The position numbers and the translations under genes are program-made. The notes below the pieces were generated by a model. It did no database searches. It saw nothing but the letters and a program-made list of their open reading frames with translations, and was not told where the DNA came from. From the IMG/VR virus record IMGVR_UViG_3300045592_000030: a stretch of DNA of 64,000 nt. The stretch is one strand, 5' to 3'. Each line of letters opens with the position of its first letter. Position 1 is the first letter of the stretch. The DNA comes from a virus. This document shows, piece after piece, positions 4,658-56,407 of this stretch.

Positions 4658-6493
4658 TTATTCCTGTGTAGCATCGGCAATGCCGGTCTTGCTGTTGTCA
4701 AGTGTGGTGATAGCCTCTCGCTTGATGACCCAACGGAGGTGCGGGTCCCAGTCGTTGAACTGCGAGGCCACCTGCCAGGGTCTTAGCACCAGCTGCTGGG
4801 TAGGCATCATCTGTAACTGCTTCATCAGATAGCGCGTGCGCATGTCGGTGCCACTGTTCTTTCCCGCCGCGCCGGGGGTGTTGCCGATAAGGGTAGAGTC
4901 CAGTCCCATAGCAAAGAAGATGATGCTTGATATTTCCAACAGTTCGGTCTGCTGTGCATCGGCATTGTTCTTACTGCTGCTTTCTATCTCCACTACCTTG
5001 AAGCTGTCGTGGTCTTTGCCGTCGCTGCCCGAGAAGGTGAAGGCGATAAGGCTCTGTCCGGCATTGGTGCGATGGTTGAGCCAGTTATTGATTTGCGTGA
5101 AAAGCTCATCACGGAGCTGTGGTTTTGTCTTGATGGCTACTTCCTTGCCCTTTGCACGTTTCTGCTGTGCGTAGAGCGTCTGCTCGTTATAAAGCGAGTT
5201 GAGATAATCGTTGTGAATGTAAATCACGCGGCCAATGACATTAGCATTGCGCTTGCGCGTGTATCGGTCAGAGATGATCGTGGCGGCATATTCATAGACA
5301 TCACCCGTGAAGATGCTGTGCCACGGCTGCACGGGATAGTAAGGCCGTCCGCTGGTAGGGTAGGAGCAAGGGAGGATGAAGTGTGTGCGTCGCTGCTCCG
5401 GGCTCTTATCCCTGTCCTCGCGCACATAGCGTTTCATGTCGGCCAGTGGTGTTTGCCAGGTCAGTGCGGGCAAAGCGACGATTTCCTCGTCCTTGATGTT
5501 TTTCAATGTCGTGGGGTCATCATAGAAGCGGTTGGAGAGATACACGTAGTTGATACGTCCGTCGTCGTCCATGCGCTCCAGTCGGCAGAGATGTGCCGGA
5601 CGGTAGCGTATGGCCTGTACCTTCGGCTTCCATACGGGTTCGAGTTTGTGGGTACTATCGTTATAGCTCTGCTGATTGATGTCGAGTTCGGGGAAACATA
5701 TACCGAGCAAGTCAATATCACTGCCCAGTTGCAAGGCGGTCAGTCCGTTGCAGGTGTTGTCGCAAAGCTGCTGTATCTCCGGCGCGTCGAGCTGCCAGCG
5801 TTCCAAATCATTATTATACTGATCTATCTGATTGTCGATGCTGGCAATAAGCGTATCGGTGCTGTTGCCGTTCTGCTCTTCTCTGTTGTCGCCATCGATA
5901 GGAAACATCGCGGCAGAATCGGGATCGTCGGCAACGCCCTGCATTTGCAACTGTACCTTCTCGCGCTGTAAGTCACGGATAAAGCCCTTGAGCAAGACGT
6001 TGGCAAAGGCGTATGGCACATCACCCTCTATCATCGTACCTCCGTTCTGATAGCGCACATAGTGGTACATGGGCTGCGGGCCTTGTCCGGCGAGCAAGTC
6101 GGTATTGAACTTATGTCCTGCCGCGGTATAGGGAAGCATCGACGTGAGCAAGGCCACCACGTTAGGGATTTTGTTCTGTGCACCCCACGTGATATAGCCT
6201 CTGTCCTTTGTCCCCGCGTTGGCCACCAACTGCTCCGAGCCGCTGGTCTGCATCAGCAAGGGGAGCATACGGCGTTGGCCGGTGCCATCGTCCTGTCCGT
6301 TGCTACAACCGAGTTGTGCGTTGATATACTGTCCGTAGTCGCCACCCGGCATATTATTGTCGTCGTGAGTGTAGTGGTTAGGTGCCACGGCATAACCGGC
6401 TTCCAACAGATGCTGCTGCACACGGGCAAACTGACTGGTGCCCTTGGCGGTGATCACGCGCCGGTCGGCTAATGTATTCTTTGTGCGTACCAT
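4658..6493 (-). CDS. Portal protein candidate
   Basis: 611 aa. Size and placement in the packaging/head region with its own late promoter fit a portal. No signature verified by eye. Confidence 0.5.
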   Translation of the reverse strand: MVRTKNTLADRRVITAKGTSQFARVQQHLLEAGYAVAPNHYTHDDNNMPGGDYGQYINAQLGCSNGQDDGTGQRRMLPLLMQTSGSEQLVANAGTKDRGYITWGAQNKIPNVVALLTSMLPYTAAGHKFNTDLLAGQGPQPMYHYVRYQNGGTMIEGDVPYAFANVLLKGFIRDLQREKVQLQMQGVADDPDSAAMFPIDGDNREEQNGNSTDTLIASIDNQIDQYNNDLERWQLDAPEIQQLCDNTCNGLTALQLGSDIDLLGICFPELDINQQSYNDSTHKLEPVWKPKVQAIRYRPAHLCRLERMDDDGRINYVYLSNRFYDDPTTLKNIKDEEIVALPALTWQTPLADMKRYVREDRDKSPEQRRTHFILPCSYPTSGRPYYPVQPWHSIFTGDVYEYAATIISDRYTRKRNANVIGRVIYIHNDYLNSLYNEQTLYAQQKRAKGKEVAIKTKPQLRDELFTQINNWLNHRTNAGQSLIAFTFSGSDGKDHDSFKVVEIESSSKNNADAQQTELLEISSIIFFAMGLDSTLIGNTPGAAGKNSGTDMRTRYLMKQLQMMPTQQLVLRPWQVASQFNDWDPHLRWVIKREAITTLDNSKTGIADATQE

Positions 6494-6515
6494 ATCTTTC
6501 TCGTTATTTCTAAGG

Positions 6516-6549
6516 TAAAGATAGTGTTTCGGGATAGGATATTAGGGAC
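6516..6549 (-). promoter_or_regulatory. Late-type promoter TGTCCCTAA-N18-TATCTTTA
   Basis: Minus strand reads GTCCCTAA + 18 nt + TATCTTTA, 22 nt before portal ATG 6493. One of five copies with identical geometry. Confidence 0.6.
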
Positions 6550-6589
6550 ACGAAAAAGCTCATCAGTGCTTTACTTCATACGCACAACC

Positions 6590-6633
6590 GCAATACTCCT
6601 TACTTTCAACTGCAATACTCCTTACTTTCAACT
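6590..6633. repeat. Perfect 22-bp tandem duplication GCAATACTCCTTACTTTCAACT x2
   Basis: Read directly: 6590-6611 equals 6612-6633. Intergenic, just upstream of the portal promoter. Confidence 0.85.
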
Positions 6634-6640
6634 GCTAAAG

Positions 6641-6695
6641 AGAAAGCTCACAACCGCTAAACTTTGTGTATTGCGGTGGTGAGCTTTCTGTTTTT
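6641..6695. terminator. 17-bp-stem hairpin, terminator-like, after the methyltransferase gene
   Basis: AGAAAGCTCACAACCGC (6641-6657) pairs with GCGGTGGTGAGCTTTCT (6673-6689), with one G-T/A-C mismatch. T-run on the + side and CTTTAG on the minus side, so orientation is ambiguous. Confidence 0.5.
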
Positions 6696-6763
6696 CTAAG
6701 AAATTGAAGTTGTTTTTCTAAGAAAAGTTCATCGTTTTTCTTAGAAAAGTAAGTTTCTAAGAA
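6694..6763. repeat. Four phased TTCTAAGAA / TTCTTAGAA palindromic boxes
   Basis: Boxes at 6694, 6716, 6738 and 6755, giving spacings of 22, 22 and 17 bp. Intergenic between the MTase stop and the portal promoter. Confidence 0.75.
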
Positions 6764-7116
6764 ATGGCGAGCGATAATGATTAAACTACAAAGCTAATAG
6801 TGGATTGATATAGCGGTCAGCGAAACGGGATTGAACAAAGATTTTCTCCACACGCTTCACGGGTCTGTCGCTGTTCATAATGTTGCTGATGCCCGTGGCC
6901 GCAATGGGTGTAAAGCCTTCGGGCATGGCATACTCACTTACAAAGACGGGCTGTGGTTTGTCCAGACACCAGCCATAGAAAGCGTCGAAATCAAACGAGG
7001 AAAGATATTTCTTCGTATTCTGATAAGGTGGATCGCAATAGATAACACTATGCGGTGGAACAGCTACATTTCTGTAGTCAGCTTGCGAGACGTGCAAAGA
7101 GACGGAATGGCTGATA

Positions 7117-7123
7117 CCCCCCC
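7117..7123 (-). repeat. Homopolymer G7 (C7 on +) at the MTase frame break
   Basis: Read directly: ctgataCCCCCCCaag. Confidence 0.9.
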
Positions 7124-7125
7124 AA

Positions 7126-7260
7126 GTCTTTCTAAGCTCTGCAACCTTTCAAGGCTTTCTAAGCTCTCCAACCTTTCGAGTCTTTCTAAGCTCTGCAATC
7201 TTTCAAGGCTTTCTAAGCTCTGCAACCTTTCAAGGCTTTCTAAGCTCTGCAAACTTTGTA
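7126..7260 (-). repeat. Five 27-bp tandem units (three 9-bp subunits each) inside the MTase ORF
   Basis: Units start at 7126, 7153, 7180, 7207 and 7234. They are in frame and encode LERLQSLES-type triplets with Leu every third residue. Confidence 0.85.
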
Positions 7261-7932
7261 AAGACTCCAACCGCTGTAAGCGTTCCAGCCGCTCGATATT
7301 CGGGTTGCATTCAAATTCGCGGATGTCGCTTGTAGATTTCTTTTTATCTTTCTTGAAATGACAGGAAGCGTAGAGCGGATTGGTCTGCAACACGCGCTCA
7401 TCGCCATTGCGCTGCAAAGCTTCTACAACGGAGCCTTGAAAACGTATGCGACGGACATGGATATGGTTGTTGGTATCAGGATGACCGCAAAGCGATACTT
7501 TATCCTTAACATAGTCGCATATTTCCGGACAGAGCTGCTCCATCATCTGCCATCGGTCAAAGACGACGGCCTCGTGGCACGCACGCTTGTATGGTTCAAG
7601 CTGTTGGGAATACATATAACTGCGTTGGTCGTTACCAAAAGAAAAGCACAGCCGGGCATACGAATCATGGTCTTTCAGCGAGAAAAAATCCTTGCACGAA
7701 ATCCACCTGCGCTCATTGTGAAACTTACCCCGAATGGCATCTGGGAACACCAGTGCGGAGTCGGTGATGTCGTTGGCGATGACCTGCTTGTATCTGCCCG
7801 ATACCATCGCGGCATGGCTCGCGGCACAGCCACCGGCAAACAAATCAACAAAGGTATCTGCACCCGGCAATGAACTCATCAGCCAACCAATGACACGGTT
7901 CTTACTGCCCTGATAAGGTAATCCGTAATTTT

Positions 7933-8250
7933 TCATGCTGAATAAAATCTTGTGCCATCAACCTCTATCACCAGATAGTCGTTGATGCGTCGTATCTCGC
8001 CACTATTGACAAACTTAATCATGTGCTGGCGCACACGGGGAAAGGCTTTCAGACAGATGCAATAACCTTCCTCCAAAACGCCCTGCTGAGTAACATACTT
8101 GATATGGAACGGCACCTGCTGCTTGTGTCGTGCATCGGCAGGAGCGTTGTAACCTACGGTGTGATGACCCGTCAGCGGATCATCCCATTCCCATTTCTCG
8201 ATATAGTTGCGTAGATACTCGAAACTGACTGTTGGATTATTCTTTGGCAT
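7933..8250 (-). CDS. Hypothetical protein
   Basis: 105-aa ORF between terL and the MTase. Its stop overlaps the MTase start by 4 nt. Confidence 0.55.
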   Translation of the reverse strand: MPKNNPTVSFEYLRNYIEKWEWDDPLTGHHTVGYNAPADARHKQQVPFHIKYVTQQGVLEEGYCICLKAFPRVRQHMIKFVNSGEIRRINDYLVIEVDGTRFYSA

Positions 8251-8261
8251 AATGATAATGA

Positions 8262-10259
8262 TTAGAAACCGCCCGGCATACAGAGGCCGGTAAGGTTGTT
8301 ACGATAGAAACGACAACCGATGTAAAGGTCATCGAAAGCGTCGGTACCATCGGTACGCAACTCTGCGGGAACAGACGATCCATCCACATTGTCGGTACTC
8401 AGTTTCTCACCCGTCTTGTCTTTCTTGAAAGTGCCCATGACCTGGCGGATGCCGCAATTCTCCATCGCTATCAAGAGACTTTCGTTGTTCTCACGGTTGA
8501 AACGAATGACCGGATAGACATACCCTGCCAATCCCTCGTTGATGTTCTTATACTTCATGTCGTGTTCCATTGCCTGACCCATATAGATAGGGTTGACCGC
8601 CCAGCCATGTTTACGGAGCTCGGCAATCACGGTGTCCTTGATGTCGGCATTACCGCTGATGGAATAGACTTTCATCTTGGCCGTATGGTTGTAATAGTAA
8701 AAGACGTTGTTGTTCTTAGCCTTGTGAGGTGCATAATATTTATCCCACAGAGCGATCAAGTCCTGCAACATCTGACCGTCCTTGACGAACATACTGCTCA
8801 GCACGTTCATGGCCTCTACGCTATCACGGCGATACATCTGCGCCGTTACTATCCAGTTGATTTTCGCGTTGTAGTCAAGGGCAATGTGCAAGGGTAGTCC
8901 GTCGATGCAATCGCCATCCAACAAACAGTCGTTCTTTAAGCCTAAGTAGTGGAAGTTAGGCGTTTCATATTCCTGCTGCTGTAAGGCACCATTATACACC
9001 GTGCTGGCGGTCTTGACACAATAAGCGTTGTCGATGGCCGGGCAATCCTCACAGATATAACCATGCACATTCTCAATGTCAAGGTTGCAATAAAAGCCGT
9101 CGCTCAGTCGCTTGGGCTTTTGGTTAAGCACCGATATTTGGAACACGAGCGGGCTAAGGTCCCGCTTCATGCGTGCAATATATTCCTTGCCGAGAAGGTC
9201 AACGTTGTCAAGCGTGGATCCGCGATAGACGATGAATGCCGCACAACGCAAATCGTTGATGTGGCGTGCGTACTTCTTGCTGCCACGTATAGCCATCATC
9301 TCAAAATGCTGCTCCTGGGTAATGAGGAACTCGTAATCAAAGATAAGGTCGGCATCGTCAGCATCTATCAGATGATAGGAAAGACAATAGTCCACCATGC
9401 CCTTAGTCATGTTGACATATTGCCGCGGCAAAGCCTTGAACGGTCCCTCGTGGCGCATCATGGAAACGGCAATCTGCTGGATGCGGTCTTTCGTCTCCTT
9501 ATCGACTTCGTGAATGCGGTGTTTGCTATCCTCTGCACGGCGCATAAGCTCGTTCCAGAAGTCCACTTTGTCGGCATAGTCAAACAACTCCTGCTGAATA
9601 TCGCGGTAGGTCTTTCCGGCAAACTCACCGGACGGGATTTTCAGGTCGAGTTTCTTTTCCTCCTTTTCAAGCCAGTTGTTTTTATTCGACAAAGATGCAT
9701 CCGACGTGAAACATGTACTCTTGTAGAACGGATTGTTGTTGTTGAAACCATTGATAGGAGACGGGGGGACAATACCCGACAGAGCGGGCATCACTTCCTG
9801 GTTAAGCTTGGTGTAAGGAATGAACTTACACTCATCGATAATCAGCGAGTTCAGGGTCATGGAGTTCACGGATCCGAACACCGCAAGGGAGGCTGAATAC
9901 CATAGCCAGCCGTTAGCCATCCACAACATGTTGTCGTAAGATTTTGGTTTCATCACCGGCTTTGGCACCCATTTTGGCGGAATGCCCCAACCGAAATGCA
10001 CGCCCTCTTTGAAACCATAGAAACTTTCCATAGCAAAGAGCATGGCGGGAATGGTGCGAGCCCACAGCTGCTTGCGCGACGAACCGCAAATGGCACCCAG
10101 ACCGCGGGGCATGGTCTGCGCTACCTGCCATAGACGTGCGCCCTGGAACTGCGACTTTCCCCAACGGCGACCACATATCGCACGCAAATCACGAGCCTGC
10201 GAATAATAGAGCTTTCGCTGGCCACGGTGCATATAGACATCTCTACGCTTCTGTGCCAT
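8262..10259 (-). CDS. terL: Terminase large subunit
   Basis: 665 aa with a Walker A-like CGRRWGKSQ and a Walker B-like SLIIDECKF. Overlaps the upstream ORF by 17 nt. Confidence 0.85.
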   Translation of the reverse strand: MAQKRRDVYMHRGQRKLYYSQARDLRAICGRRWGKSQFQGARLWQVAQTMPRGLGAICGSSRKQLWARTIPAMLFAMESFYGFKEGVHFGWGIPPKWVPKPVMKPKSYDNMLWMANGWLWYSASLAVFGSVNSMTLNSLIIDECKFIPYTKLNQEVMPALSGIVPPSPINGFNNNNPFYKSTCFTSDASLSNKNNWLEKEEKKLDLKIPSGEFAGKTYRDIQQELFDYADKVDFWNELMRRAEDSKHRIHEVDKETKDRIQQIAVSMMRHEGPFKALPRQYVNMTKGMVDYCLSYHLIDADDADLIFDYEFLITQEQHFEMMAIRGSKKYARHINDLRCAAFIVYRGSTLDNVDLLGKEYIARMKRDLSPLVFQISVLNQKPKRLSDGFYCNLDIENVHGYICEDCPAIDNAYCVKTASTVYNGALQQQEYETPNFHYLGLKNDCLLDGDCIDGLPLHIALDYNAKINWIVTAQMYRRDSVEAMNVLSSMFVKDGQMLQDLIALWDKYYAPHKAKNNNVFYYYNHTAKMKVYSISGNADIKDTVIAELRKHGWAVNPIYMGQAMEHDMKYKNINEGLAGYVYPVIRFNRENNESLLIAMENCGIRQVMGTFKKDKTGEKLSTDNVDGSSVPAELRTDGTDAFDDLYIGCRFYRNNLTGLCMPGGF

Positions 10260-16440: not shown

Positions 16441-16620
16441 AATAGATATATTGTTTATTTCGATTTTGATTTCTACACCAAAAGTAAACAATACATTTTT
16501 CGTCAGGACGCAAAAATTAGGGGGAAAACCTTTGTTTTCGGGAAAGAGCAAAAAAAAAGTGAAAACAAAAAATCCGCATATCCTCACGGACAGCGGATCA
16601 ACCATTGAATTTATGAAATA

Positions 16621-16655
16621 CAAAAAAATCAGCAAATGAAAGCGCATCCCTGCGC
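16621..16655 (-). terminator. Rho-independent terminator after the 160-aa gene
   Basis: Minus strand: GCGCAGGGATGCGC hairpin followed by TTTCATTTGCTGATTTTTTTG. Confidence 0.6.
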
Positions 16656-19504: not shown

Positions 19505-20026
19505 TCAAACTAATAGATAATCTTGCCAAATTTCGGCAAATTGTTGGCCGAAATAGATTGCGATTTCATCGCTTTCGGAAGCAAGAGCACCACCGTTATG
19601 CGCGGACGCGCTCAAAACATCGTAGTACGAGTACAAACACGACGAACCGACATCGGAACCGCTGTTCGCACTACCGACGCAAAGCGAGGCGTCTTTCTTT
19701 ATGATTTTGAACCAAGGAAAATACTTATATTGACCAAAATCTGCCCAGTCAGGTTTCCAACTGCCCCGCAATGCCTTTGCTATTATACAAAGTTTAGCGT
19801 ATGCCTTTAGATGCTTAGGTGTAATTCCTTCAACATAAGAAGGATCATCTCCTGTTACCTTGCAGGCATCCTCGAAGGTCCTTATTTTTTCATAGTCATT
19901 CAGAAACATTTCTTCTCCGTATAGATTGCGGAGCATTTTCTTACCGTTTTCATCTGCATCTTTATATGCAGTCTGTAATTTTGAAACAGGCACGAATGCC
20001 ATGTTTATGTTTTCTTCTTTTTCCAT
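19505..20026 (-). CDS. Hypothetical protein
   Basis: 173-aa ORF. First gene of the AT-rich island. Confidence 0.6.
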   Translation of the reverse strand: MEKEENINMAFVPVSKLQTAYKDADENGKKMLRNLYGEEMFLNDYEKIRTFEDACKVTGDDPSYVEGITPKHLKAYAKLCIIAKALRGSWKPDWADFGQYKYFPWFKIIKKDASLCVGSANSGSDVGSSCLYSYYDVLSASAHNGGALASESDEIAIYFGQQFAEIWQDYLLV

Positions 20027-20032
20027 AATTAT

Positions 20033-20218
20033 TTATTTGAATTGTTCCTTACTCCAATTTACGCCTTTCTTAAATCCTTCTACAAATGCATTAGTGCATA
20101 TATCATGAATTTCCATATTACATATAGACTTTGGAAATGTCCATAAAAGGCATTTACCACATCTCTGACTTCTACCATCATATAAATTAGCTGCTTTTTT
20201 TATTCCTACCATAATCAA
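20033..20218 (-). CDS. Hypothetical small protein
   Basis: 61-aa ORF abutting its neighbours. Confidence 0.45.
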   Translation of the reverse strand: MIMVGIKKAANLYDGRSQRCGKCLLWTFPKSICNMEIHDICTNAFVEGFKKGVNWSKEQFK

Positions 20219-20452
20219 TTATTTTAAATGTTTCATATACCAATCAAATTTAGCACTTATCCTTCCGTAATAAGAGTCATAAATCCTCCTATTATATTCA
20301 GCCCTTTCATATCCTACAAAGAAACTATTACATTTACATGTATAAAAATCATTCAGATTCTCTAACTCGTTTGAAAAGTGTTCGGCTCTTTCTTTATAAT
20401 ATCCCTTAGAAAGTATCTTTTCCCGTAGCTTTTTTATTGTTCTTGCTTTCAT
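20219..20452 (-). CDS. Hypothetical small protein
   Basis: 77-aa ORF abutting the downstream gene. Confidence 0.5.
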   Translation of the reverse strand: MKARTIKKLREKILSKGYYKERAEHFSNELENLNDFYTCKCNSFFVGYERAEYNRRIYDSYYGRISAKFDWYMKHLK

Positions 20453-20699
20453 ATCTATTTTCCTGTATTAAATTATGATGCTTTGCGAAAAGACATGGAG
20501 TCTTACCATCAGAACGTAGATCATTACAATCATCAGTGCAATCAACTCCACAATCATACTTTTTTAAGCATGTACCCCAAAGAGAAGTTGCGCATCCGTC
20601 TTCATCTTTTCCATATCAAGGGCAATCTTTGAAAGTTTTCTTCTTGTATTTTTTCCTATGGTGCATGACTGCATCAGGGAATAGTTCCTGCTGCTTCAT
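20406..20699 (-). other. Cys-rich reading frame interrupted by one in-frame TGA (20616-20618)
   Basis: Hand translation: MKQQELFPDAVMHHRKKYKKKTFKDCP-TGA-YGKDEDGCATSLWGTCLKKYDCGVDCTDDCNDLRSDGKTPCLFAKHH... It fills an otherwise ORF-less gap. Confidence 0.3.
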
Positions 20700-20703
20700 T
20701 TCT

Positions 20704-20934
20704 TTACCTTCTCTTTTGCGTGATTTTTTTATAGATTTCATCTGCATGGTCAAACATCCATGTCATTCCCATACCAAACCCTTTCATGAAGAGCTGCTTT
20801 TCGTTATGCGTCATCTGATAAAGATGATGTTTCAGCAAAGAATCTTCCGCCTTGTCACCTTGGCGCATAGCCTCTTCGGTAATCAATTTTTCCTTTTCTT
20901 CCGGTGTCATTTCTTTACCTCCTTTTTCTTCCAT
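20704..20934 (-). CDS. Hypothetical small protein
   Basis: 76-aa ORF. Confidence 0.5.
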   Translation of the reverse strand: MEEKGGKEMTPEEKEKLITEEAMRQGDKAEDSLLKHHLYQMTHNEKQLFMKGFGMGMTWMFDHADEIYKKITQKRR

Positions 20935-21113
20935 GTTTGGTAAGAAACATTTACTTCACGAAATGCGTAAAAAGTCTTACCGCAATTTTCGCATTGGACC
21001 TCTTCTCGTTCAAAATCGTCGTCTCCTTCAAAGGCTGTACCTACCTCTTGATGATGTCCGCAATAGGGGCAGATTAATTCATAACTGCTCCATGTATCAA
21101 TATCTTCCATCAT
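20907..21113 (-). CDS. Small zinc-ribbon protein
   Basis: 68 aa with CPYCG...CENCG. Confidence 0.5.
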   Translation of the reverse strand: MMEDIDTWSSYELICPYCGHHQEVGTAFEGDDDFEREEVQCENCGKTFYAFREVNVSYQTWKKKEVKK

Positions 21114-21115
21114 AA

Positions 21116-21403
21116 TTATTTCTCCTTTCTAAAAACCTTTGATGATATTCTTTTATATTTCACATCAGGGTTAAAATTCTTTGCTAAAAAATTTAAGCTG
21201 CTGTCCTTAAGTTCTTTAACATCTTCAGCAAATTCTTTTGCATCGGATTGTCGGTCCCCAAAATTCCGTAGGCTGTGCCATCTTTTATGTGCCTCAGGAG
21301 GCAAAATAAACCATTCTTTAACAATATAACCATAATCAGTATTGCTAACTTGCGCCATATCTAATCTCCAATTATTTATTATTTTCGGTAAAATGTAATT
21401 CAA
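21116..21403 (-). CDS. Hypothetical small protein
   Basis: 95-aa ORF. Confidence 0.5.
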   Translation of the reverse strand: MNYILPKIINNWRLDMAQVSNTDYGYIVKEWFILPPEAHKRWHSLRNFGDRQSDAKEFAEDVKELKDSSLNFLAKNFNPDVKYKRISSKVFRKEK

Positions 21404-21629
21404 CCTCTACCGGATTATCCCCATAATTCATTTTATACCCCAATATTGATTTAATAGTCCCTTTCGGCAAGACCAGCCAGTCACCGTCAAACGACATGAA
21501 GTAATCTAAATGTGGCTTTTTCATTGATAGTATTTCTTCCTTTAAAGGATTCACCGAAAGATAAAATCTGTTCATCTTGCTCTTAATGCTGATACCTTCT
21601 TGGTATCTTTCAAAATCTGAATCCGTCAT
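21372..21629 (-). CDS. Hypothetical small protein
   Basis: 85-aa ORF overlapping its neighbours. Confidence 0.5.
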   Translation of the reverse strand: MTDSDFERYQEGISIKSKMNRFYLSVNPLKEEILSMKKPHLDYFMSFDGDWLVLPKGTIKSILGYKMNYGDNPVEVELHFTENNK

Positions 21630-21826
21630 ATCTGTTCCTCCTCTCCCAGATGGTTAGTGTTAACTTTTTTGCTTTTAGCTTTATCTCTCTCATCGGCATC
21701 GTCATCTCGAGCCATTAGAACAAGGCAAGCAAATATTGTCATCATCGCCATTATTATAATTAATCCTAATACTATAGCTCGTATGTTATCAAGTCTTGTG
21801 ATCCAATAAAATGTTTCCATAATCAT
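21626..21826 (-). CDS. Small single-pass membrane protein
   Basis: 66 aa with a hydrophobic core AIVLGLIIIMAMMTIFACLVLMA. Confidence 0.5.
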   Translation of the reverse strand: MIMETFYWITRLDNIRAIVLGLIIIMAMMTIFACLVLMARDDDADERDKAKSKKVNTNHLGEEEQI

Positions 21827-21840
21827 CTAATTTTTAGTTC

Positions 21841-22014
21841 TTATCCATGAAATTTAATTAATAACTTTGTAATATCTTCTTTAATATCAAGCACCATTTT
21901 TTGATTTTCTTCTGAATAACACATTGACTCTACATAATCACATAGATCATATAAGTCTACAATAGCATCTTTTTTGTCTTTTTCAAAAATTTGACGATCT
22001 AAATCCGTTTCCAT
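21841..22014 (-). CDS. Hypothetical small protein (57 aa, below track cutoff)
   Basis: Hand translation: METDLDRQIFEKDKKDAIVDLYDLCDYVESMCYSEENQKMVLDIKEDITKLLIKFHG. Fills a gap in the gene array. Confidence 0.4.
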   Translation of the reverse strand: METDLDRQIFEKDKKDAIVDLYDLCDYVESMCYSEENQKMVLDIKEDITKLLIKFHG

Positions 22015-22190
22015 ACATATACCTTTTCTATGTCTTTTTCTGTGGCGTAATTCTTAATTCCTTTAACCTTGTAAAGGTAAACTCCTCTACTGTCTTTAAG
22101 CACTTCGGTAATGATAGAGATCTTACCGATCATCTCTTTGTTTTTGTGACTTACAACCTTTACGGTGTCACCTAATTTAAATTTATTCAT
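21999..22190 (-). CDS. Hypothetical small protein
   Basis: 63-aa ORF. Confidence 0.5.
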   Translation of the reverse strand: MNKFKLGDTVKVVSHKNKEMIGKISIITEVLKDSRGVYLYKVKGIKNYATEKDIEKVYVWKRI

Positions 22191-22213
22191 AGTCTTTATG
22201 TTTAAATCATTTT

Positions 22214-22639
22214 TTACTTATCAGTGCACTTGTTTCTTACCAGTTCGTTATATTCTGCTATCCAATCTGCTGGTATAGCCTTATTTGCATCGATATAACG
22301 CTTAATCCCATCTTTTATCATGTCTATCCGTTTCCTGTCCCAGATAAATTTAGGCATTACTCCCAACGGTGGTCTATCTGTATTATCTTTTTTCGGATAT
22401 TTGGCAAAAAACACATCAAAATTAAGGTTTCCAATTATATCTCTCCAAAATGCGGGTCCTTCTTTAGTCCTCGACCACTCGAATCCACCATTATCAACAC
22501 AAGAAGATGGGTCTATTTGAAATACGCCCACGTCAGCCTTGTTTCCTTGGTGAACTTGATTGCTAACCATTTTCTGAACTATTTCTATAGGGAAATCCTT
22601 GATTTGCCCTTTTAAATCTGACTCTTTAACTTTGTACAT
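22214..22639 (-). CDS. Hypothetical protein
   Basis: 141-aa ORF. Confidence 0.55.
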   Translation of the reverse strand: MYKVKESDLKGQIKDFPIEIVQKMVSNQVHQGNKADVGVFQIDPSSCVDNGGFEWSRTKEGPAFWRDIIGNLNFDVFFAKYPKKDNTDRPPLGVMPKFIWDRKRIDMIKDGIKRYIDANKAIPADWIAEYNELVRNKCTDK

Positions 22640-22641
22640 AA

Positions 22642-22893
22642 TTACTTATTTAATAAGGGAGGTATTGGCATCCAATAGTCAACGTCATCTAATTCTGCAC
22701 TATCACATAAAAAATCACCTGTGTCACTCCATATAAATTCACCTTCATCAATAAACAAATATAACGTTGTATATTCATTATTTCCTTTTATATGACAAAG
22801 AACTTGTTTGGAACGCGACATTCCATCTTCTGATTCTTCTTTTGTTTCAGGAAGTCTTACTTTAGCATCTATCCATGTTTCTTGTTCTATCAT
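22642..22893 (-). CDS. Hypothetical small protein
   Basis: 83-aa ORF. Confidence 0.5.
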   Translation of the reverse strand: MIEQETWIDAKVRLPETKEESEDGMSRSKQVLCHIKGNNEYTTLYLFIDEGEFIWSDTGDFLCDSAELDDVDYWMPIPPLLNK

Positions 22894-23245
22894 AATTAAT
22901 ATTTTTTAAAATAAGCCTTCCTAAGAAAGAACTTATATCTTTAATCCGTAGGCAATCATATCTTTCCATAATTGGCTCTACTACATTATCTTTTTTAACT
23001 AAAATACATTTATCTGTTACTACTATGTTAGCTTCATCATCATCATCACGAAATAATTTAGCATCTAATCTACCCCACGGGCGTATATTGATATGGCCCA
23101 TTCTGATATATTCTAAACCCGCACTATTTAGATTTTCAACTATAAGATCAGCGGGAGAATACCATTCTCCGAATATATCCCTAAAACCCATATCAACACG
23201 TACATCGCTCGGTATAGGTATCATTATTCTATTTTCTTGTCTCAT
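22862..23245 (-). CDS. Hypothetical protein
   Basis: 127-aa ORF. Confidence 0.5.
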   Translation of the reverse strand: MRQENRIMIPIPSDVRVDMGFRDIFGEWYSPADLIVENLNSAGLEYIRMGHINIRPWGRLDAKLFRDDDDEANIVVTDKCILVKKDNVVEPIMERYDCLRIKDISSFLGRLILKNINYDRTRNMDRC

Positions 23246-23252
23246 AATCTAC

Positions 23253-23594
23253 TTATATTAATATTTTAAACATTTCACATGATTTATCATCATTTGATTT
23301 GTATGTTATAAATCCTATCCTTTTATACCAGTCTGCTATCCAACTGGTACTATCATTTACATGTAAGTACAGATATTTGCACCCTTTTTGTTTTGCAATA
23401 TCCTCAACTATGGATATAAGTTCTGTGGCCATTCCTTTTCTCCTCTCATGCTCTGAAACATTAAGATTTGACAGGAACATGTTATGGCGTTCATTCTCAT
23501 AATAGGTTAACTCACAGAAAGCATTTCCGTGTTCCTCCATAATGTATATTGATACATCATCATTATCTGAATTTATGTTAGTAATTGTTTTCAT
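23253..23594 (-). CDS. GNAT-family acetyltransferase (short)
   Basis: 113 aa. RRKGMATELISIVEDIAKQKG fits the acetyl-CoA-binding motif A (R/QxxGxG/A). Confidence 0.6.
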   Translation of the reverse strand: MKTITNINSDNDDVSIYIMEEHGNAFCELTYYENERHNMFLSNLNVSEHERRKGMATELISIVEDIAKQKGCKYLYLHVNDSTSWIADWYKRIGFITYKSNDDKSCEMFKILI

Positions 23595-23596
23595 AA

Positions 23597-23777
23597 TTAA
23601 TATTTTTTACCGTTCTTATAGGGGCGCAGTTCATTGTACTTCATCTTTAGGTCAATGAATTTGAACAAGTCAATATTGCATCTTTTAGCAAGTGGGAACA
23701 CATTCCTTTTCATGAAATCCGTGCGCCTTTGCGATTGAATAAGCACGGTCACGAAGTGCATTTAAATCTTGTTCCAT
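23597..23777 (-). pseudogene. Remnant of a MazG-like NTP pyrophosphohydrolase gene (internal deletion plus frameshift)
   Basis: MEQDLNALRDRAYSIAKAHGFHEKECVPTC-stop. The +1 frame continues ...CNIDLFKFIDLKMKYNELRPYKNGKKY. The N- and C-terminal ends look MazG-like (from memory) and the middle is missing. Confidence 0.3.
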
Positions 23778-23792
23778 AACTACTTTTATTAA

Positions 23793-23960
23793 TTATATAT
23801 TGTTATCTTTTTTTAATAGTTCATTTATTAAAACATCTGTATCTGAAATAGCTGTTCTTGCAATAATCTTTTTATCTGCATTAGCATTACTTGCCATTAA
23901 ATATTTAGCATATAGTTCCGTGGAAATGTACACTCTTACCAAATTAAAATTTTGTCCCAT
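23793..23960 (-). CDS. Small protein, paralog B (55 aa)
   Basis: Hand translation: MGQNFNLVRVYISTELYAKYLMASNANADKKIIARTAISDTDVLINELLKKDNNI. Paralog of 24704..24856. Confidence 0.45.
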   Translation of the reverse strand: MGQNFNLVRVYISTELYAKYLMASNANADKKIIARTAISDTDVLINELLKKDNNI

Positions 23961-23962
23961 AA

Positions 23963-24697
23963 TCATTCAATCATTAAATAGTCTTTTACCAGTTGCTCGT
24001 TGTACTTCAAAAATGAATCTCGTTGCTCTGCTGTATGGAAAGCAAGAAAATAATATCTATTTAGGCAATTGATTTCCATTATGATATTGTTAATCCTACT
24101 TATTACATATTTAGTAAGGTGTATATCATCCCATTCTTCATCAGTGATAGCACCCCCGTAATAGGGCATGAGCTGGCTAATCATTGCCATTGCAAGTGCT
24201 GACTTGGCATGCTTTTCATCATAGAAAACATTGCGATAATTATCACAAAAAACTTCGTATTCACTTATATCTTTTATTTCTGAATGTGTATCTATTTGAA
24301 CACAATCCCAAGGAATATCTTTTCCATGTAAATCATCCCAAGTTTTTATAGTTTGTTCATTGTCTTTTATTAACTCAAAAATTACATCATTATGATCTTT
24401 TCTGAAAATGCCATTACATTGATAAGGACCGCAACCTTTTATTTTTTCATAATAACATCCTGCACACCTACAATCAGAAGAGCGACATACCGATGACACA
24501 ACTCTTAATTTAGGGCCATTATATCCTAAAGGCCTAAGAATAGAATCTTCTTTTGGGTCTATTTCTTTTTTATGTCTGTTTTTAAATTCCTCATAACTGT
24601 CATTTTCGGCTTGTATTCTCTTATCTCTTTCTTCTTCTTCATGAAACTCTCCGTATTCATCATAATATCCTTGATTAGTCTGATATTTTACTGCCAT
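23963..24697 (-). CDS. Hypothetical Cys-rich protein
   Basis: 244-aa ORF flanked by the two paralogous small genes. Confidence 0.6.
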   Translation of the reverse strand: MAVKYQTNQGYYDEYGEFHEEEERDKRIQAENDSYEEFKNRHKKEIDPKEDSILRPLGYNGPKLRVVSSVCRSSDCRCAGCYYEKIKGCGPYQCNGIFRKDHNDVIFELIKDNEQTIKTWDDLHGKDIPWDCVQIDTHSEIKDISEYEVFCDNYRNVFYDEKHAKSALAMAMISQLMPYYGGAITDEEWDDIHLTKYVISRINNIIMEINCLNRYYFLAFHTAEQRDSFLKYNEQLVKDYLMIE

Positions 24698-24703
24698 AAT
24701 TTT

Positions 24704-24856
24704 TTATTTTAAAAGTTCATTAATTAAACAGTCTGTATCTTTTACAGCCGTTTTAGCGATTATAATCCTATCAGAATCCGGACAGCTTGCCATTAAATAT
24801 TTAGCATATAGTTCAGTGGCTATATATACTCTTACCATGTTTAAATCTTGTTCCAT
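24704..24856 (-). CDS. Small protein, paralog A (50 aa)
   Basis: Hand translation: MEQDLNMVRVYIATELYAKYLMASCPDSDRIIIAKTAVKDTDCLINELLK. Confidence 0.45.
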   Translation of the reverse strand: MEQDLNMVRVYIATELYAKYLMASCPDSDRIIIAKTAVKDTDCLINELLK

Positions 24857-24858
24857 AA

Positions 24859-25332
24859 CTATCTGTAATTATAAATTTTATTTTTAACTCCTTCACGTCT
24901 TGCAATAGATGCAAGCATACATAGATCGCCTGAGTTATTGCATTCAACAAACCTCGGTCTCTTTGTGACATCTATATTCTTTCCGTCATATTCGAGTAGT
25001 CCCCAATTTTCTGGTATTTCTTCTGGAGATAATAGACCTTTCGGAATAAGATAGTATCTAAAATTACCACAGGCATTTTCTTTTTTACGACATTTCTTTT
25101 TGCTATCTCTCAAAAAATCACTCCTACTTGTTTTAATTTCTATCACATAAGATAGAAATCCATTCGTCCCCCATACATCAGGATTCTCAATCCCAATCGT
25201 AATGAGCTCTATGGCTACGATTTTACAAGAGTCTATCATGGTTCCGTCGGAAGTGTATTTTATTCTTCCATTATGTAACCATCTTGCTCCTTCCTGGCAT
25301 AATCTATAATGTAATGAATCGGTAGCACTCAT
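24859..25332 (-). CDS. PD-(D/E)xK nuclease-like protein (MmcB-like)
   Basis: 157 aa. The D...E-x-K pattern (DVWG...VIEIKTSRSDF) is typical of restriction-endonuclease-fold proteins. Family assignment is from memory. Confidence 0.45.
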   Translation of the reverse strand: MSATDSLHYRLCQEGARWLHNGRIKYTSDGTMIDSCKIVAIELITIGIENPDVWGTNGFLSYVIEIKTSRSDFLRDSKKKCRKKENACGNFRYYLIPKGLLSPEEIPENWGLLEYDGKNIDVTKRPRFVECNNSGDLCMLASIARREGVKNKIYNYR

Positions 25333-25334
25333 AA

Positions 25335-25526
25335 TTATTTCTTTAAAAAGTCCTTACACTTTAAATTCTCTCCCCTGTGGTCTATCATATAGTACAGTCC
25401 TACCGTACCTTCTTTCAAATACCTTTTGCAGTTTTCTTTCCTCACGCATTTTCCATTCGTGCACATTGCTATGTCAGAATTTGGTGAGATAAATTGTACA
25501 GGATTTTTCTTTAAATCTGTTTCCAT
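25335..25526 (-). CDS. Small Cys-rich protein
   Basis: 63-aa ORF. Confidence 0.5.
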   Translation of the reverse strand: METDLKKNPVQFISPNSDIAMCTNGKCVRKENCKRYLKEGTVGLYYMIDHRGENLKCKDFLKK

Positions 25527-25528
25527 AA

Positions 25529-25771
25529 TCAGTTATTTTTATTTACCTTAAACTTATCACAAAACTCAAGAATCCGTAGAATATCTTCTGCAAGGTCAAT
25601 AACCTGCTTATCCAGCGTATTCTTCTTCATTTCTGAAACTACAAACTTTTGATACATAATGATATTATCAAGAGTATTTATCGTTTCCAATTTTAACTGC
25701 TTCATAACTTTCATAGTTAGTCCTTTCCATTTCCGAATATCGCACAGAAAAAGAACAGCGCTACGATCCAA
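25529..25771 (-). CDS. Hypothetical small protein
   Basis: 80-aa ORF. The start may be an internal Met. Confidence 0.45.
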   Translation of the reverse strand: MDRSAVLFLCDIRKWKGLTMKVMKQLKLETINTLDNIIMYQKFVVSEMKKNTLDKQVIDLAEDILRILEFCDKFKVNKNN

Positions 25772-25793
25772 ATTACTATAATCAATATTGCTT

Positions 25794-26327
25794 TCATTTG
25801 TCGGTGAATATTTGTTTCAAGTAATCCTCGAGATTGATAATACGATAGGGTAGGGCATTCTTCTTACAGTCGTTGACAAAGGTAACATCCACATCATCCA
25901 GTGTCAACGGTGTGCGTTCCTTGTCTCTGTCTTTGCGTGCGGCATCTATCTTCGTGCGGTCGGGTCGGCGGATATATATCACTCGGATGTTGCACTCGTG
26001 CGAGAAATGCTCACGAAGATAGGACAAACCTTTTTCGTCGATGACATACACGTTGATGCGTGTTGTGGAAAGGTCTTTGAAGTTGGCCCAATATTCATAT
26101 CCGCCATACTGCGTATAGGCGAACATATCCATCTTGTCATAGCCGATGTTCTTTGTCGGGTCGTGGAAGATATGCTCGCGGCGATTTTGCTCTCCCGGTC
26201 GCATCGGGCGTGTGGTGTGGCTGACCAGCACCTTGAAGCCTACGTCGGTCTTTTCCAACAACCGTGCGATGGTGTCCTTGCCGCTACCACTGGCACCAAC
26301 GATACATAATACTTTTCTGCGTGCCAT
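25794..26327 (-). CDS. Guanylate-kinase-like nucleoside monophosphate kinase
   Basis: P-loop GASGSGKDT followed by SHTTRPMRPGEQNRREHIF (GK signature S-x-TTR-x-x-R-x-GE). Confidence 0.65.
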   Translation of the reverse strand: MARRKVLCIVGASGSGKDTIARLLEKTDVGFKVLVSHTTRPMRPGEQNRREHIFHDPTKNIGYDKMDMFAYTQYGGYEYWANFKDLSTTRINVYVIDEKGLSYLREHFSHECNIRVIYIRRPDRTKIDAARKDRDKERTPLTLDDVDVTFVNDCKKNALPYRIINLEDYLKQIFTDK

Positions 26328-26548
26328 CAGCCTTCTATCTCCTTTAGGTTTTCCTCGACGAACCGATATTCCTCTGTTGTTTCGTCGAAATTGTACAAAG
26401 TCAGTTCCCGAAGCAATCCACGTATAGCCTCCGTTGTGGAATGCGCCTGCTCAACACTGCTCACACTGCCTTTCGGCAATGTAGCCGATACAAGCTCTGC
26501 GGACTTAAAACCGTCCTCGTCTGAATGAATTTTCAGTTCCATAATCAA
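26327..26548 (-). CDS. Hypothetical small protein
   Basis: 73-aa ORF abutting the kinase gene. Confidence 0.5.
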   Translation of the reverse strand: MIMELKIHSDEDGFKSAELVSATLPKGSVSSVEQAHSTTEAIRGLLRELTLYNFDETTEEYRFVEENLKEIEG

Positions 26549-26550
26549 TC

Positions 26551-27015
26551 TTATTTTATTTCAACTACAATTGCATCCGATGTAAGCGGGTACACCCACA
26601 TACGACGAAACATTTTAGATTTATTCGATGTAATCATCAGTTGCTCATTTTCCAAGCCCTCCACGCGATCAATACAGACAATCCCATTTTTCATAGGTAT
26701 TTCAATCTTGGTATCGCTATTTACCGTCAGGCGGTCAGCCGCAAGCGACACACCATCCAACACCTGAACGGCCTGCTGCTGCGCATTGTCAACTGTCGCA
26801 CTCTGCTGCGATTGATACTTATACTGTCGCTTAATCGACTCGAAAAAGAAGATATAAGCTCCAAGACAAAAGAAGCTTCCGGCAGCACAAGTGCACATCT
26901 GCACAAACTCCTTCCACAACCCGAAAAGACCTGCTGCGGAAAGAAACACAAATATGCAACAATATGCCAATGCACAAAGAAATGGCATCAGTTTACTTTT
27001 TACGTTTTTCTTCAT
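26551..27015 (-). CDS. Membrane protein (two TM segments)
   Basis: 154 aa. Hydrophobic segments LMPFLCALAYCCIFVFLSAAGLFGLW and AAGSFFCLGAYIFFF. Confidence 0.55.
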   Translation of the reverse strand: MKKNVKSKLMPFLCALAYCCIFVFLSAAGLFGLWKEFVQMCTCAAGSFFCLGAYIFFFESIKRQYKYQSQQSATVDNAQQQAVQVLDGVSLAADRLTVNSDTKIEIPMKNGIVCIDRVEGLENEQLMITSNKSKMFRRMWVYPLTSDAIVVEIK

Positions 27016-27502
27016 CTTTATAATGTTTTAGTTGCCAATATAACTGTTTACGTATCGTTTCCGCCTCGCTCGGTGATAACTGAATGGGGCAATGGAGATA
27101 ACTCCTTATGCAACGAGGATCAGCGAGCGAGGATAATGTTGGCGGTCCATACACGCGAACGGGGCTGCTGCTAAGACAGGAGGCATGAAGCTTGCCATCA
27201 GAAGGTAGCCAGTAGTAGCCATCACCGTTAATGATTTTGTCACGAGAAAATCTTAGCTCTGGGATGTCAAGGTGGTCTCGCACCTTTGACGATAACATAT
27301 CCGATATATCGTCCTGCTTTTTTGTATGCTGTAATGGCCCTTGCCATAGAAGCAATAAATCTGCAAATTGACAAAACCATTTCTTGCTGCGTCTTACGAA
27401 ACGACTGTAATGCCTCACTTTGCTATGTGTGTGCATCTCGTACAACTGCACCAACAGTTTTACATTATTCTTCTTTGTCTTTCTTATGCTTGTCATTTGC
27501 AT
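26993..27502 (-). CDS. Hypothetical protein
   Basis: 169-aa ORF. Confidence 0.5.
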   Translation of the reverse strand: MQMTSIRKTKKNNVKLLVQLYEMHTHSKVRHYSRFVRRSKKWFCQFADLLLLWQGPLQHTKKQDDISDMLSSKVRDHLDIPELRFSRDKIINGDGYYWLPSDGKLHASCLSSSPVRVYGPPTLSSLADPRCIRSYLHCPIQLSPSEAETIRKQLYWQLKHYKDEEKRKK

Positions 27503-27579
27503 CTATTTTATCAACCAGTCTTATAAAACTATCAAATATGCTTTCATTATCAATTATTTATTGAAATTCATCTTACTTT

Positions 27580-28224
27580 TTACTTTGTAAACGCTTCCCG
27601 TGTCTTGTCATCCGCCTCTTTCTTCTTTGCAAGGATATATGCTATACGCTCATTCACGGATTGCAGTTCTGTAAGATCGCATTCATGAATGGGCGTATCT
27701 TTCAACCCGACTTCATCGCCTTTATGATTCAGCTGTAAAAAGGATTTCCGCTTTTGATACTGCGCAAACATGTTGCCAGTCATCATCGACATAAACTGCG
27801 TATTCTGAACCTGCTGCAAGGTAACAATTCCAGAATTAGGGAGAAGACCAAGACATACATAGAACGCATAAGCGCGGAAAGAATCAAGCGAATAGATTTT
27901 GGTGCATATTTCCTTTATCTCTCGCTTTTTCGTCATCGGCTCTTTAAGTCGATAGTCTGGGTAGCGACCGACACACGGCTGAAATTCAGGCGCAATCTTA
28001 TTAGTCTCTGGCAGTGTGTCAGCCTCCAACAGATACTGCATATCTGCAACACCTTTCAACCACCGCGATGCTTCCACGGCATCGTGGCTTGTGCCAAGTC
28101 CGAAAGTGAATCCCTTGCTTGTAGAGTCGTAGCCTAAGCCGTGCCAGTCATTTCCCTGTAAAAGGGTATGGTCAGTACATAGCCGCATGGCTTCGTCGGC
28201 TCCCATAAATCGATATACTCTCAT
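27580..28224 (-). CDS. Hypothetical protein
   Basis: 214-aa ORF. Confidence 0.6.
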   Translation of the reverse strand: MRVYRFMGADEAMRLCTDHTLLQGNDWHGLGYDSTSKGFTFGLGTSHDAVEASRWLKGVADMQYLLEADTLPETNKIAPEFQPCVGRYPDYRLKEPMTKKREIKEICTKIYSLDSFRAYAFYVCLGLLPNSGIVTLQQVQNTQFMSMMTGNMFAQYQKRKSFLQLNHKGDEVGLKDTPIHECDLTELQSVNERIAYILAKKKEADDKTREAFTK

Positions 28225-29998: not shown

Positions 29999-30976
29999 TC
30001 ATTCTCCATTGATAACCCGATGCCAAAAGCATTTTCGGTCGTAGTCGGTGGGGAAGTGCAAAGCGTCCCACGATACCGTACCACTATAATAGAGATTGCC
30101 CACAAGGGCGATGAAACCGGCGATGGTGCTTTTGCTCACCGACCGCAACAGCTCATCAAACTTCTTATCACACTCGGCGGCATTGTAATTGCCCGACAAC
30201 GCCGATACGCGGTGGAAGAAACCACGGCCTACGCCCTCACCCATCGACGCGAAACAGAAACCTATCTTATACCACGTGTCGTAGTCGTCGGCGATGTTGG
30301 CATGGTCACGCTCCAGCCTCGTTACAAGCTTATCGATAAATGCCGTCTGGTCGCGCTCCTGCGGCTGCAAGTCGTAGCGCATCGGACGGATGGCCCGTTT
30401 CGGCACATACAAGCCACGGTAGGCCACACATCGCTCGTTGATATAAGGCTGGTCATCATACGAGGCAAAGCGAATGCGAGTGATGTCGCTGCAAGCCTTG
30501 TCAAGGGTGATGCCAAGGGCCTTGTATTCATCATAGAGAGCCTGAAACTGCTCCTTATGTTTTTCGGGATAGGCGAGACGCACGAGAGCAAACAATCCGG
30601 TGCCACTGCAACTGTGCATGAACATCGCCACCTCCGGACGGAACCGCAACACCATCGCGATGTTGTCGGGATTGCTGATGCCCTCGTTGTCGCCTTTGTC
30701 AATGTCAAGCGCAATATATCCCGTGTGCCTGACAAGGGCATCGCCACGGCGCACACGAAACTCACCGCTCAGTGTGGCCCCTGGCAATTGCCGTTTGAGA
30801 GCCTGATACTCCGGCATGGCTTTGGCCGCTGCCGCACCATGATCGGCTATCAGTTGGCGAAGCTTACTGACCTGCGGCTTCCAACGGTCAGTGAACAGAA
30901 ACTCGCGCATCTCCACGGTCCCTATTCCCTGCCGGTCTTTGGCGTTGGCATATAAGCTGCATCTCTCGGTAAACAT
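29999..30976 (-). CDS. BT4734/VirE-N-like plus PriCT-like primase-associated protein
   Basis: DITRIRFASYDDQPYIN and DYDTWYKIGFCFASMGEG resemble Bacteroides mobile-element primase-associated domains (from memory). Confidence 0.5.
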   Translation of the reverse strand: MFTERCSLYANAKDRQGIGTVEMREFLFTDRWKPQVSKLRQLIADHGAAAAKAMPEYQALKRQLPGATLSGEFRVRRGDALVRHTGYIALDIDKGDNEGISNPDNIAMVLRFRPEVAMFMHSCSGTGLFALVRLAYPEKHKEQFQALYDEYKALGITLDKACSDITRIRFASYDDQPYINERCVAYRGLYVPKRAIRPMRYDLQPQERDQTAFIDKLVTRLERDHANIADDYDTWYKIGFCFASMGEGVGRGFFHRVSALSGNYNAAECDKKFDELLRSVSKSTIAGFIALVGNLYYSGTVSWDALHFPTDYDRKCFWHRVINGE

Positions 30977-56266: not shown

Positions 56267-56407
56267 ACTGATTGATTTTGAATTGTTATTTTCTAGTTTT
56301 TGAACGTTCCTATAATGATAGGTATGATGATAATTATCTTGCTTGAAGCGAAGCTAACAACGAAACAAACTTGCTTGCAAACAAGTAATCAAGTTTATTC
56401 CGGAGCG

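Follow-up and report, generated by a model that had tools for sequence, protein, structure and literature searches.

A candidate ON/OFF poly-G tract in an orphan DNA methyltransferase gene of an uncultivated phage

Introduction

When a phage methyltransferase gene is found split in two at a short run of guanines, does the split reflect a sequencing error, a gene in decay, or a switch that phage populations keep in working order? The question is raised by a stretch of 64,000 nucleotides (nt) from the virus record IMGVR_UViG_3300045592_000030 in IMG/VR, here called the window, by which we mean the whole stretch analysed. On its minus strand lies a D12-class DNA methyltransferase gene (6786..7936) that reads as two open reading frames (ORFs) as sequenced, and as a single gene of 383 codons when its run of seven G is lengthened to eight. 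A preliminary description, made from the sequence of the window alone, proposed that this is a phase-variable ON/OFF gene, and named a homopolymer error and a decaying gene as the alternatives. Here we bring together the structure of the gene, the variation of its tract among relatives, and the signs of selection on the gene. The evidence consists of public consensus assemblies, and all tract counts are of distinct public sequences crossing the site, which fall into two clades. Taken together, these data make it probable that the run is a genuine, slippage-driven hypermutable ON/OFF tract in an orphan methylase of an uncultivated tailed phage from wastewater, and that the window holds the gene in its OFF state.

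Results and discussion

A reading frame broken at a poly-G tract

The tract (G7 at 7117..7123 on the minus strand, C7 on the plus strand) lies in the codons of a Gly-Gly-Gly hinge, which are in frame at G8 and out of frame at G7 or G9. As sequenced, the upstream frame yields an OFF-state product of 290 amino acids (7064..7936, minus strand) comprising motif I, a helical middle domain, a repeat linker and an out-of-frame tail. This product begins MKNYGLPYQGSKNR, and both N-terminal signatures assigned to it in the preliminary description were located, YQGSKNR at residues 8–14 and DLFAGGCA (motif I) at residues 31–38 (nt 7823–7846). At the break, after ...LERL-GG, the coding strand reads CTT GGG GGG G|TA, and 17 codons past the two Gly codons the frame stops, as had been described, at a TAG (7064–7066), giving the out-of-frame tail VSAIPSLCTSRKLTTEM. 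The catalytic motif CDPPYQ is indeed carried by a second ORF of 103 amino acids (6786..7097, minus strand, with a TTG start at 7097), in which DPPY occupies nt 7023–7034. There is an overlap of 34 nt between the two ORFs, and no stop interrupts the downstream frame on the way back to the tract.

One additional G, inserted in silico, fuses the two ORFs into a protein of 383 amino acids, close to the roughly 385 that had been predicted, which reads ...LERLGGGISHSVSLHVSQADYRNVAVPPHSVIYCDPPYQ... across the tract; the repaired junction, ...LERLGGGISHSVSLHVSQADYR..., leads on to CDPPYQ, with DPPY at residues 302–305 of the fusion. Removing one G in silico (G6) gives no fused protein. Tract length thereby toggles the frame, the product being truncated at G7, full-length at G8 and truncated again at G9. 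The methylase tract is the only G or C run of seven or more in the 64-kb window. Dinucleotide shuffles of the window nevertheless lead one to expect 1.7 ± 1.5 G7 runs against the one observed, and the rarity of such a run by chance composition was dropped as an argument. Since a G7 run alone is not improbable, we place the weight on the position of the frame break and on comparative data.

The tract varies among near-identical genomes

The exact G7 allele, represented by the 290-residue protein entry P0121, occurs on nine contigs, and its C-terminal ORF is identical to P0122. Five G7 contigs that were fetched come from five samples, at least three projects and two assembly pipelines (wastewater assemblies ERZ965292 and ERZ964756; JGI 3300043958, 3300044549 and 3300045593), and match the window at 99.87–100% identity over 3.4–4.9 kb with 0–6 single-nucleotide polymorphisms (SNPs). 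Loci L064–L068 share G7 with the window and L069 (ERZ22666027, a 32-kb contig) carries G8. Over 5152 nt, L069 and the window agree at 99.825% identity and differ by eight substitutions and one gap, the gap being the eighth G; no indel other than the tract separates the window from L064–L069. The product of L069, P0132, has 383 amino acids, the predicted ...LGGGISHS... junction and a C-terminal domain identical to that of the window, and differs from the predicted fusion of the window in a few N-terminal residues. G7 is a genuine allele, and assembly error is excluded for practical purposes.

A second lineage comprises L048 (G7), which is 99.8% identical to L050, L051 and L054 (all G8, and mutually identical), and P0151, which is the G9 form of this L048/L050 lineage; L048, L050 and L051 belong to the ERZ272981xx set. 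Inserting a G into L050 in silico yields the P0151 tail together with the C-terminal ORFs P0145 and P0159 (TTG/ATG starts). The clade that is about 62% identical in DNA to the window clade is represented at G8 by L056. Entries P0163, P0166 and P0171 end in ...NGGGYS before a stop, which is the G9 reading, and the corresponding C-terminal ORFs start at an ATG formed from AAT+G9; the G9 forms found are these three, P0151 and P0147. The distinct sequences that span the tract comprise 40 in frame, 5 at −1 (G7, with GGV... tails) and 6 at +1 (G9, with GGGY... tails), which means that about 22% are OFF, and these −1 and +1 breaks all fall at the poly-G tract. Besides the group of the window, two further near-clonal groups contain alleles in more than one state. 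Far from being invariant in relatives, G7 occurs beside G8 and G9 in near-identical genomes, which supports the proposal of a candidate phase-variable ON/OFF gene.

The product is a D12-class methyltransferase with a Dam-like fold

The G8-repaired protein matches the Pfam family PF02086 (MethyltransfD12) at 55.5 bits (cut-off 22, E 8.9e-15) and phrog_56, DNA methyltransferase (E 5.5e-23). A profile of the 77-sequence family, compared with the PDB, recovers T4 Dam (E 1.7e-11) and also E. coli Dam, with the FxGxG and DPPY motifs aligned. Motif I is N-terminal and motif IV (DPPY) C-terminal in the repaired protein, which is the alpha-type order. An AlphaFold2 model of this protein has a mean predicted local distance difference test (pLDDT) score of 79, with high values for residues 11–190, values mostly of 80–97 for residues 280–383, and values below 50 at 198–242 and 260–274. 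Foldseek searches with the model place T4Dam (1yf3), EcoDam (4rtq) and Mcbe1 (7m6b) at the top with probability 1.0, and the top 20 matches are to these same three proteins (probability 0.96–1.0), at target-normalised template modelling (TM) scores of 0.39–0.50 that are low because the linker and the extra domain find no counterpart.

T4 Dam and E. coli Dam are the best matches in both sequence and fold, and share with the window protein the succession of motif I, a middle domain and then DPPY. In contrast to Dam, the window protein is about 120 amino acids longer, its helical middle domain is much larger, and it contains a Leu-x-x repeat linker of 50–80 amino acids that Dam lacks. The repaired protein also falls far under the cut-off of the NCBIfam Dam subfamily model TIGR00571 (37.3 bits against 114.85, with the match limited to residues 7–75), and the family label 'Dam' was rejected; GATC specificity is therefore not implied. 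The earlier term 'Dam-type' is a loose one: the protein belongs to the D12 class by Pfam and has a Dam/T4Dam-like fold, and it lies outside the Dam subfamily. No nuclease (res/hsd) partner was found among the neighbours of the methylase, and synteny is the same in the longer related loci. The gene product is an orphan D12-class N6-adenine DNA methyltransferase of alpha type and Dam/T4Dam fold. Full-length relatives in frame (P0001, P0002, P0125 and P0132) are 90–97% identical. The truncated G7 product keeps the S-adenosylmethionine (AdoMet)-binding and middle domains and loses the catalytic-domain motifs from DPPY onward, and it should be inactive, judging from the known mechanism of the family.

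Maintenance of the run and selection on the gene

Is the run kept for its own sake? Of the Gly codons, GGG is the one used least in the window (45 of 682, or 6.6%, in 28 long ORFs), and GGG-GGG is used in none of the 42 Gly-Gly pairs of 28 other window ORFs. Elsewhere in the methylase genes of relatives, GGG accounts for 0–1 of 12–15 Gly codons. Synonymous sites are saturated between the two clades (proportion of synonymous differences, pS, 0.68–0.82; four-fold identity 32–38%), and GGG-GGG-GGT (G8) is retained in both. That G8 is kept despite the codon bias and the saturated synonymous sites argues for selection at the nucleotide level on the run itself, which looks maintained in this comparison of sequences and partly eroded in some lineages. 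Over the 95 codons that follow the tract, dN/dS ratios lie between 0.05 and 0.20, pairs with OFF alleles (the window and L047) included. Once repaired, OFF alleles read through without stops, and those examined have no secondary lesions in the downstream domain. Purifying selection combined with clean repaired OFF alleles suggests that OFF states are evolutionarily recent or transient.

A proposed switch and its competitors

We posit the following mechanism. The G-run codes for a Gly-Gly-Gly hinge that connects the variable (LERLQSLES)n linker with the strand that opens the catalytic domain. When the phage replicates its DNA, slipped-strand mispairing on G8 would generate heritable G7 or G9 alleles, either of which would cut the protein before motif IV (DPPY) and so be expected to abolish methylation. 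The window would then represent the OFF (G7) allele as the inherited majority state, and the tract, if reversible within a lineage, would keep generating methylating and non-methylating phage genotypes in the population. Methylation shields DNA from classical restriction enzymes and exposes it to methylation-dependent ones. A population holding both genotypes could thereby spread its risk between two kinds of defence, one cutting sites that lack methylation and the other cutting DNA that carries it, and this adaptive bet-hedging reading of the poly-G switch is plausible. As a virion carries the methylation conferred by whichever genotype was replicating in the cell it came from, the phenotype would lag the genotype by one infection cycle.

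The composition of the window bears on the defences that the phage meets. CTAG occurs once (at 56293) where 86 sites are expected (observed/expected 0.01), and is entirely missing from the relatives L043, L055, L056 and L058; GATC occurs 100 times against 287 expected (0.35). GATATC, CCATGG, GCGCGC, CATATG, GACGTC and AGTACT are all absent from the window, GTCGAC has a single occurrence where 18 are expected, and CTGCAG has two where 15 are expected. Such extreme avoidance of palindromes suggests that the phage is under strong (Type II) restriction pressure and follows a strategy of site avoidance.

The main rival to the slippage switch is a neutral hotspot of mutation, a run that just happens to encode GGG in an accessory gene the phage can do without, with frameshifts that mark early and effectively irreversible loss, and several observations weigh on its side and against the switch. 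Besides being expected from composition, the run is interrupted or gone in several lineages: synonymously as GGA GGG GGT (GGAGGGGG) in the close relatives L043–46 and L049 and as GGG GGT GGT (GGGGGTGG) in L057, and non-synonymously as GGG GGG TGG (GGGGGGTGG) in L055 and GGG GAG GGT (GGGGAGGGT) in L058 (LAHS01000618.1), the single useful locus from a scan of JGI metagenomes. Such losses mean that selection for mutability is not universal; the lineages with an interrupted run are always in frame. Other relatives are inactivated away from the tract, by a T-run that is one T longer close to codon 64 (GTGTTTTCAAGAT) in L054 (1398–1700), P0004 and P0148, a lesion found in two sequences with unlike repeat numbers, or by a truncation after residue 122 (...ACHEDFICIRKPTM followed by a stop) common to P0139, P0140 and P0142. 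Such lesions show a dispensable gene that in some lineages has just been lost. G7 is moreover unchanged across the five fetched samples, which lie up to 0.13% apart, and this constancy implies either that switching is too slow to scramble the consensus or that OFF is favoured in that lineage. Some of the source assemblies may also derive from error-prone data. Against a hotspot stand the retention of a run of the rarest Gly codon across two clades with saturated synonymous sites, the strong purifying selection on the downstream catalytic domain with no secondary lesions in the OFF alleles examined, and the recurrence of both −1 and +1 states around G8 in near-clonal backgrounds, which points to repeated recent events rather than to old dead lineages. 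On balance we consider a neutral hotspot unlikely, if far from negligible. The earlier alternative of a decaying gene fares accordingly: the low dN/dS of the downstream domain and the clean repaired frame speak against it for the alleles discussed here, and outright loss does occur in some relatives.

The other explanations are less likely still. A homopolymer sequencing or assembly error, with a true genome at G8 and a constitutive gene, draws on poly-G being where short and long reads alike go wrong most often and on a case built from consensus assemblies; the same G7 on nine contigs, five of them spanning five samples and two pipelines at 0–6 SNPs, the absence of any other indel between the window and L064–L069, and an OFF fraction at the tract far over consensus-level error render this alternative of the preliminary description highly improbable. 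Could G7 instead be leaky, some full-length enzyme being made through −1 ribosomal frameshifting or RNA-polymerase slippage? Homopolymers are known slippage sites of both machineries (reviews: PMC5009743, PMC6260861), and the downstream frame is open right up to the tract. Yet G8 is a single frame in most relatives, hence there is no conserved requirement for recoding; OFF alleles are of both −1 and +1 type, and one recoding event could not restore both; T GGG GGG G, read in this frame, does not conform to the canonical X XXY YYZ heptamer; and the 97 nt past the tract form no more stable a fold than shuffled sequence does (z = −1.1) and have no Rfam match. We therefore regard recoding as very unlikely. 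It is scarcely conceivable, finally, that the 290-residue N-terminal and 103-residue C-terminal chains assemble into an active split methyltransferase. Natural two-chain methyltransferases exist, M.AquI being an example, and the 34-nt overlap, the possible TTG start of the second ORF and the ATG or TTG starts right at the tract in the C-terminal ORFs of G9 alleles would suit such an arrangement; the single-chain form, however, is the ancestral and majority state, a start at the TTG leaves out the hinge and is not preceded by any recognisable ribosome-binding sequence, and the break point is unlike in G7 and G9 alleles.

A variable repeat linker beside the tract

Directly upstream of the tract, an in-frame tandem repeat of 27 nt (7123..7257, minus strand; five copies, 90% match) encodes the (LERLQSLES)n linker. 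Within the window clade the repeat segment ranges from 16 to 53 amino acids, and whole units are gained or lost between genomes that are 99.8–100% identical, L048 having one fewer than L050 and L054 one more. Leu-x-x periodicity at the linker position is conserved among aligned homologues, for example in a protein of Alistipes onderdonkii, and the AlphaFold2 model assigns the repeat low confidence. These observations raise the speculative notion, which we hold to be improbable, that the methylase is doubly hypervariable, the poly-G tract setting ON or OFF and the 27-nt repeat tuning the spacing between recognition and catalytic domains, and that in a plasmid prophage the switch amounts to a virus-borne phasevarion. 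If so, repeat-set spacing would alter the activity or target specificity of the methylase, much as repeat number sets specificity in the HsdS subunits of EcoR124I/II, and, were the phage to persist as a plasmid prophage partitioned by ParA, its host too would be given alternative methylomes by the switch.

Genomic context and lifestyle

The start of the methylase gene is overlapped (ATGA) by the stop of an ORF of 105 amino acids (7933..8250, minus strand), whose other neighbour is the large terminase (8262–10259). After the methylase comes an ORF of 611 amino acids, a putative portal by its size and its place near the terminase, for which no PHROG match was found and no Pfam family appears in the precomputed annotations of relatives. 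The order terminase, 105-residue ORF, methylase and portal is kept in the longer loci L043, L050, L054–L057 and L064–L069, and shorter contigs keep its upstream part. The overlap with the 105-residue ORF and the adjacency to the terminase suggest that the methylase belongs to the packaging/late gene block.

Between the methylase and the 611-residue ORF lies a non-coding, repeat-rich spacer of about 290 nt (6494–6785). It contains two sets of three 22-nt direct repeats (6572–6637 and 6689–6754), four half-palindromes of the TTTCTAAGAAA type, and an inverted repeat with 26-nt arms (6637–6662 and 6668–6693); neither an Rfam family nor a consensus terminator was assigned to it. The spacer could be a regulatory or protein-binding region. 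A promoter and terminator scan of 6400–8400 returned nothing above shuffles, and Rfam returned only sub-threshold, chance miRNA-like matches to an intergenic hairpin.

At the level of near-identity, the DNA matched nothing among GenBank phages or PLSDB plasmids, and the best terminase matches, to fecal 'Bacteriophage sp.' and Microcystis phages, are about 30% identical; by these sequence comparisons, this is a phage without a cultured relative. Scans of IMG/VR by protein, by alignment and by a tract-spanning DNA pattern found no close relative, and the sole gene that a scan of GTDB genomes brought up, in Treponema ruminis, is 37% identical, so that no host is assignable. The window encodes, all on the minus strand, a ParA-like partition ATPase (56408–57292; phrog_164, E 6.5e-50), two primase-like proteins (29999–30976 and 61746–62693), a sliding-clamp-like protein (43816–44967) and an exonuclease (49191–49955). 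No integrase was found among the 30 long window ORFs scanned, the full genome being about 84 kb. The presence of ParA and replication genes without an integrase is compatible with a phage-plasmid (plasmid-prophage) lifestyle, a possibility also raised in the preliminary description.

Further features of the window lie apart from the methylase. A transposase gene (32021–33262, plus strand; phrog_506, E 1e-42), on the strand opposite to most surrounding long ORFs, is probably an insertion sequence within the phage genome. Positions 20001–28000 have a GC content of 33–39%, against 44–50% elsewhere, and a strongly negative GC skew. At 16622–16628, in codons 7–9 of an annotated head-protease-like ORF of 632 amino acids, the window has seven A and L043 has eight, and the head-protease-like gene of L043 is called 14 codons shorter than that of the window. 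This A7/A8 difference may be a 5' leader change or another variable tract. A run of nine A nearby in the window (16550–16558) is interrupted in L043.

Relation to known systems and implications

The type of mechanism proposed here is already known, with bacterial mod genes, phage poly-G tracts and T2 agt as close precedents. The agt gene of phage T2 is a DNA-modification gene that has been shown by experiment to be a homopolymer contingency locus, its simple sequence repeat (SSR) mutants exceeding a point mutant in reversion frequency by about 1000-fold, and it is subject to a trade-off in which TgvAB restricts the glucosylated form and McrA/BC the unglucosylated form (Gomez, Barrick & Waters, bioRxiv 2025, PMC12633550). 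Like agt, the window gene encodes a phage DNA-modification enzyme that ±1 slippage within a homopolymer of the coding sequence would switch on and off. The two differ in that agt is a glucosyltransferase gene with A-runs in a cultured T-even phage, whereas the window gene belongs to an uncultivated phage, specifies an N6-adenine methyltransferase and carries a G-run, and in that the evidence for agt is experimental, whereas the window locus is known from natural allele polymorphism and sequence conservation.

In the phase-variable mod genes of Type III/I restriction-modification systems, slippage of SSRs within the methyltransferase ORF leads to ON/OFF switching and alternative methylation states (PMC13076061). 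Those of Haemophilus, Neisseria, Helicobacter and Moraxella phasevarions resemble the window gene in SSR slippage within the methyltransferase ORF; in contrast to this viral orphan with no adjacent partner, they sit on a bacterial chromosome with a res/hsd partner and control a cell regulon. Among phages, PMC12633550 cites hypermutable poly-G tracts in Campylobacter Fletchervirus phages (Sorensen et al. 2021) and, for Bordetella phage BPP-1, a poly-G tract noted in a methylase gene (Liu et al. 2004). The likeness lies in poly-G runs of 7–11 in phage genes and in ON/OFF subpopulations, with BPP-1 providing a direct precedent in a phage methylase; the Fletchervirus tracts are found in receptor-binding proteins, and the BPP-1 tract is reported to have been noted without being studied. 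GenBank phage DNA and protein searches gave no sequence relationship between these phages and the window phage.

For practice, split methylase ORFs at homopolymers in viral metagenomes should be neither 'repaired' automatically nor dismissed as pseudogenes, and the named public samples available for each allele make this locus a concrete test system for the toggling of self-methylation. Phage contingency loci as a general form of bet-hedging have been proposed only recently, from laboratory T-even phages. The window locus provides independent evidence from natural populations, with one DNA-modification gene found ON, OFF (−1) and OFF (+1) across many metagenomes.

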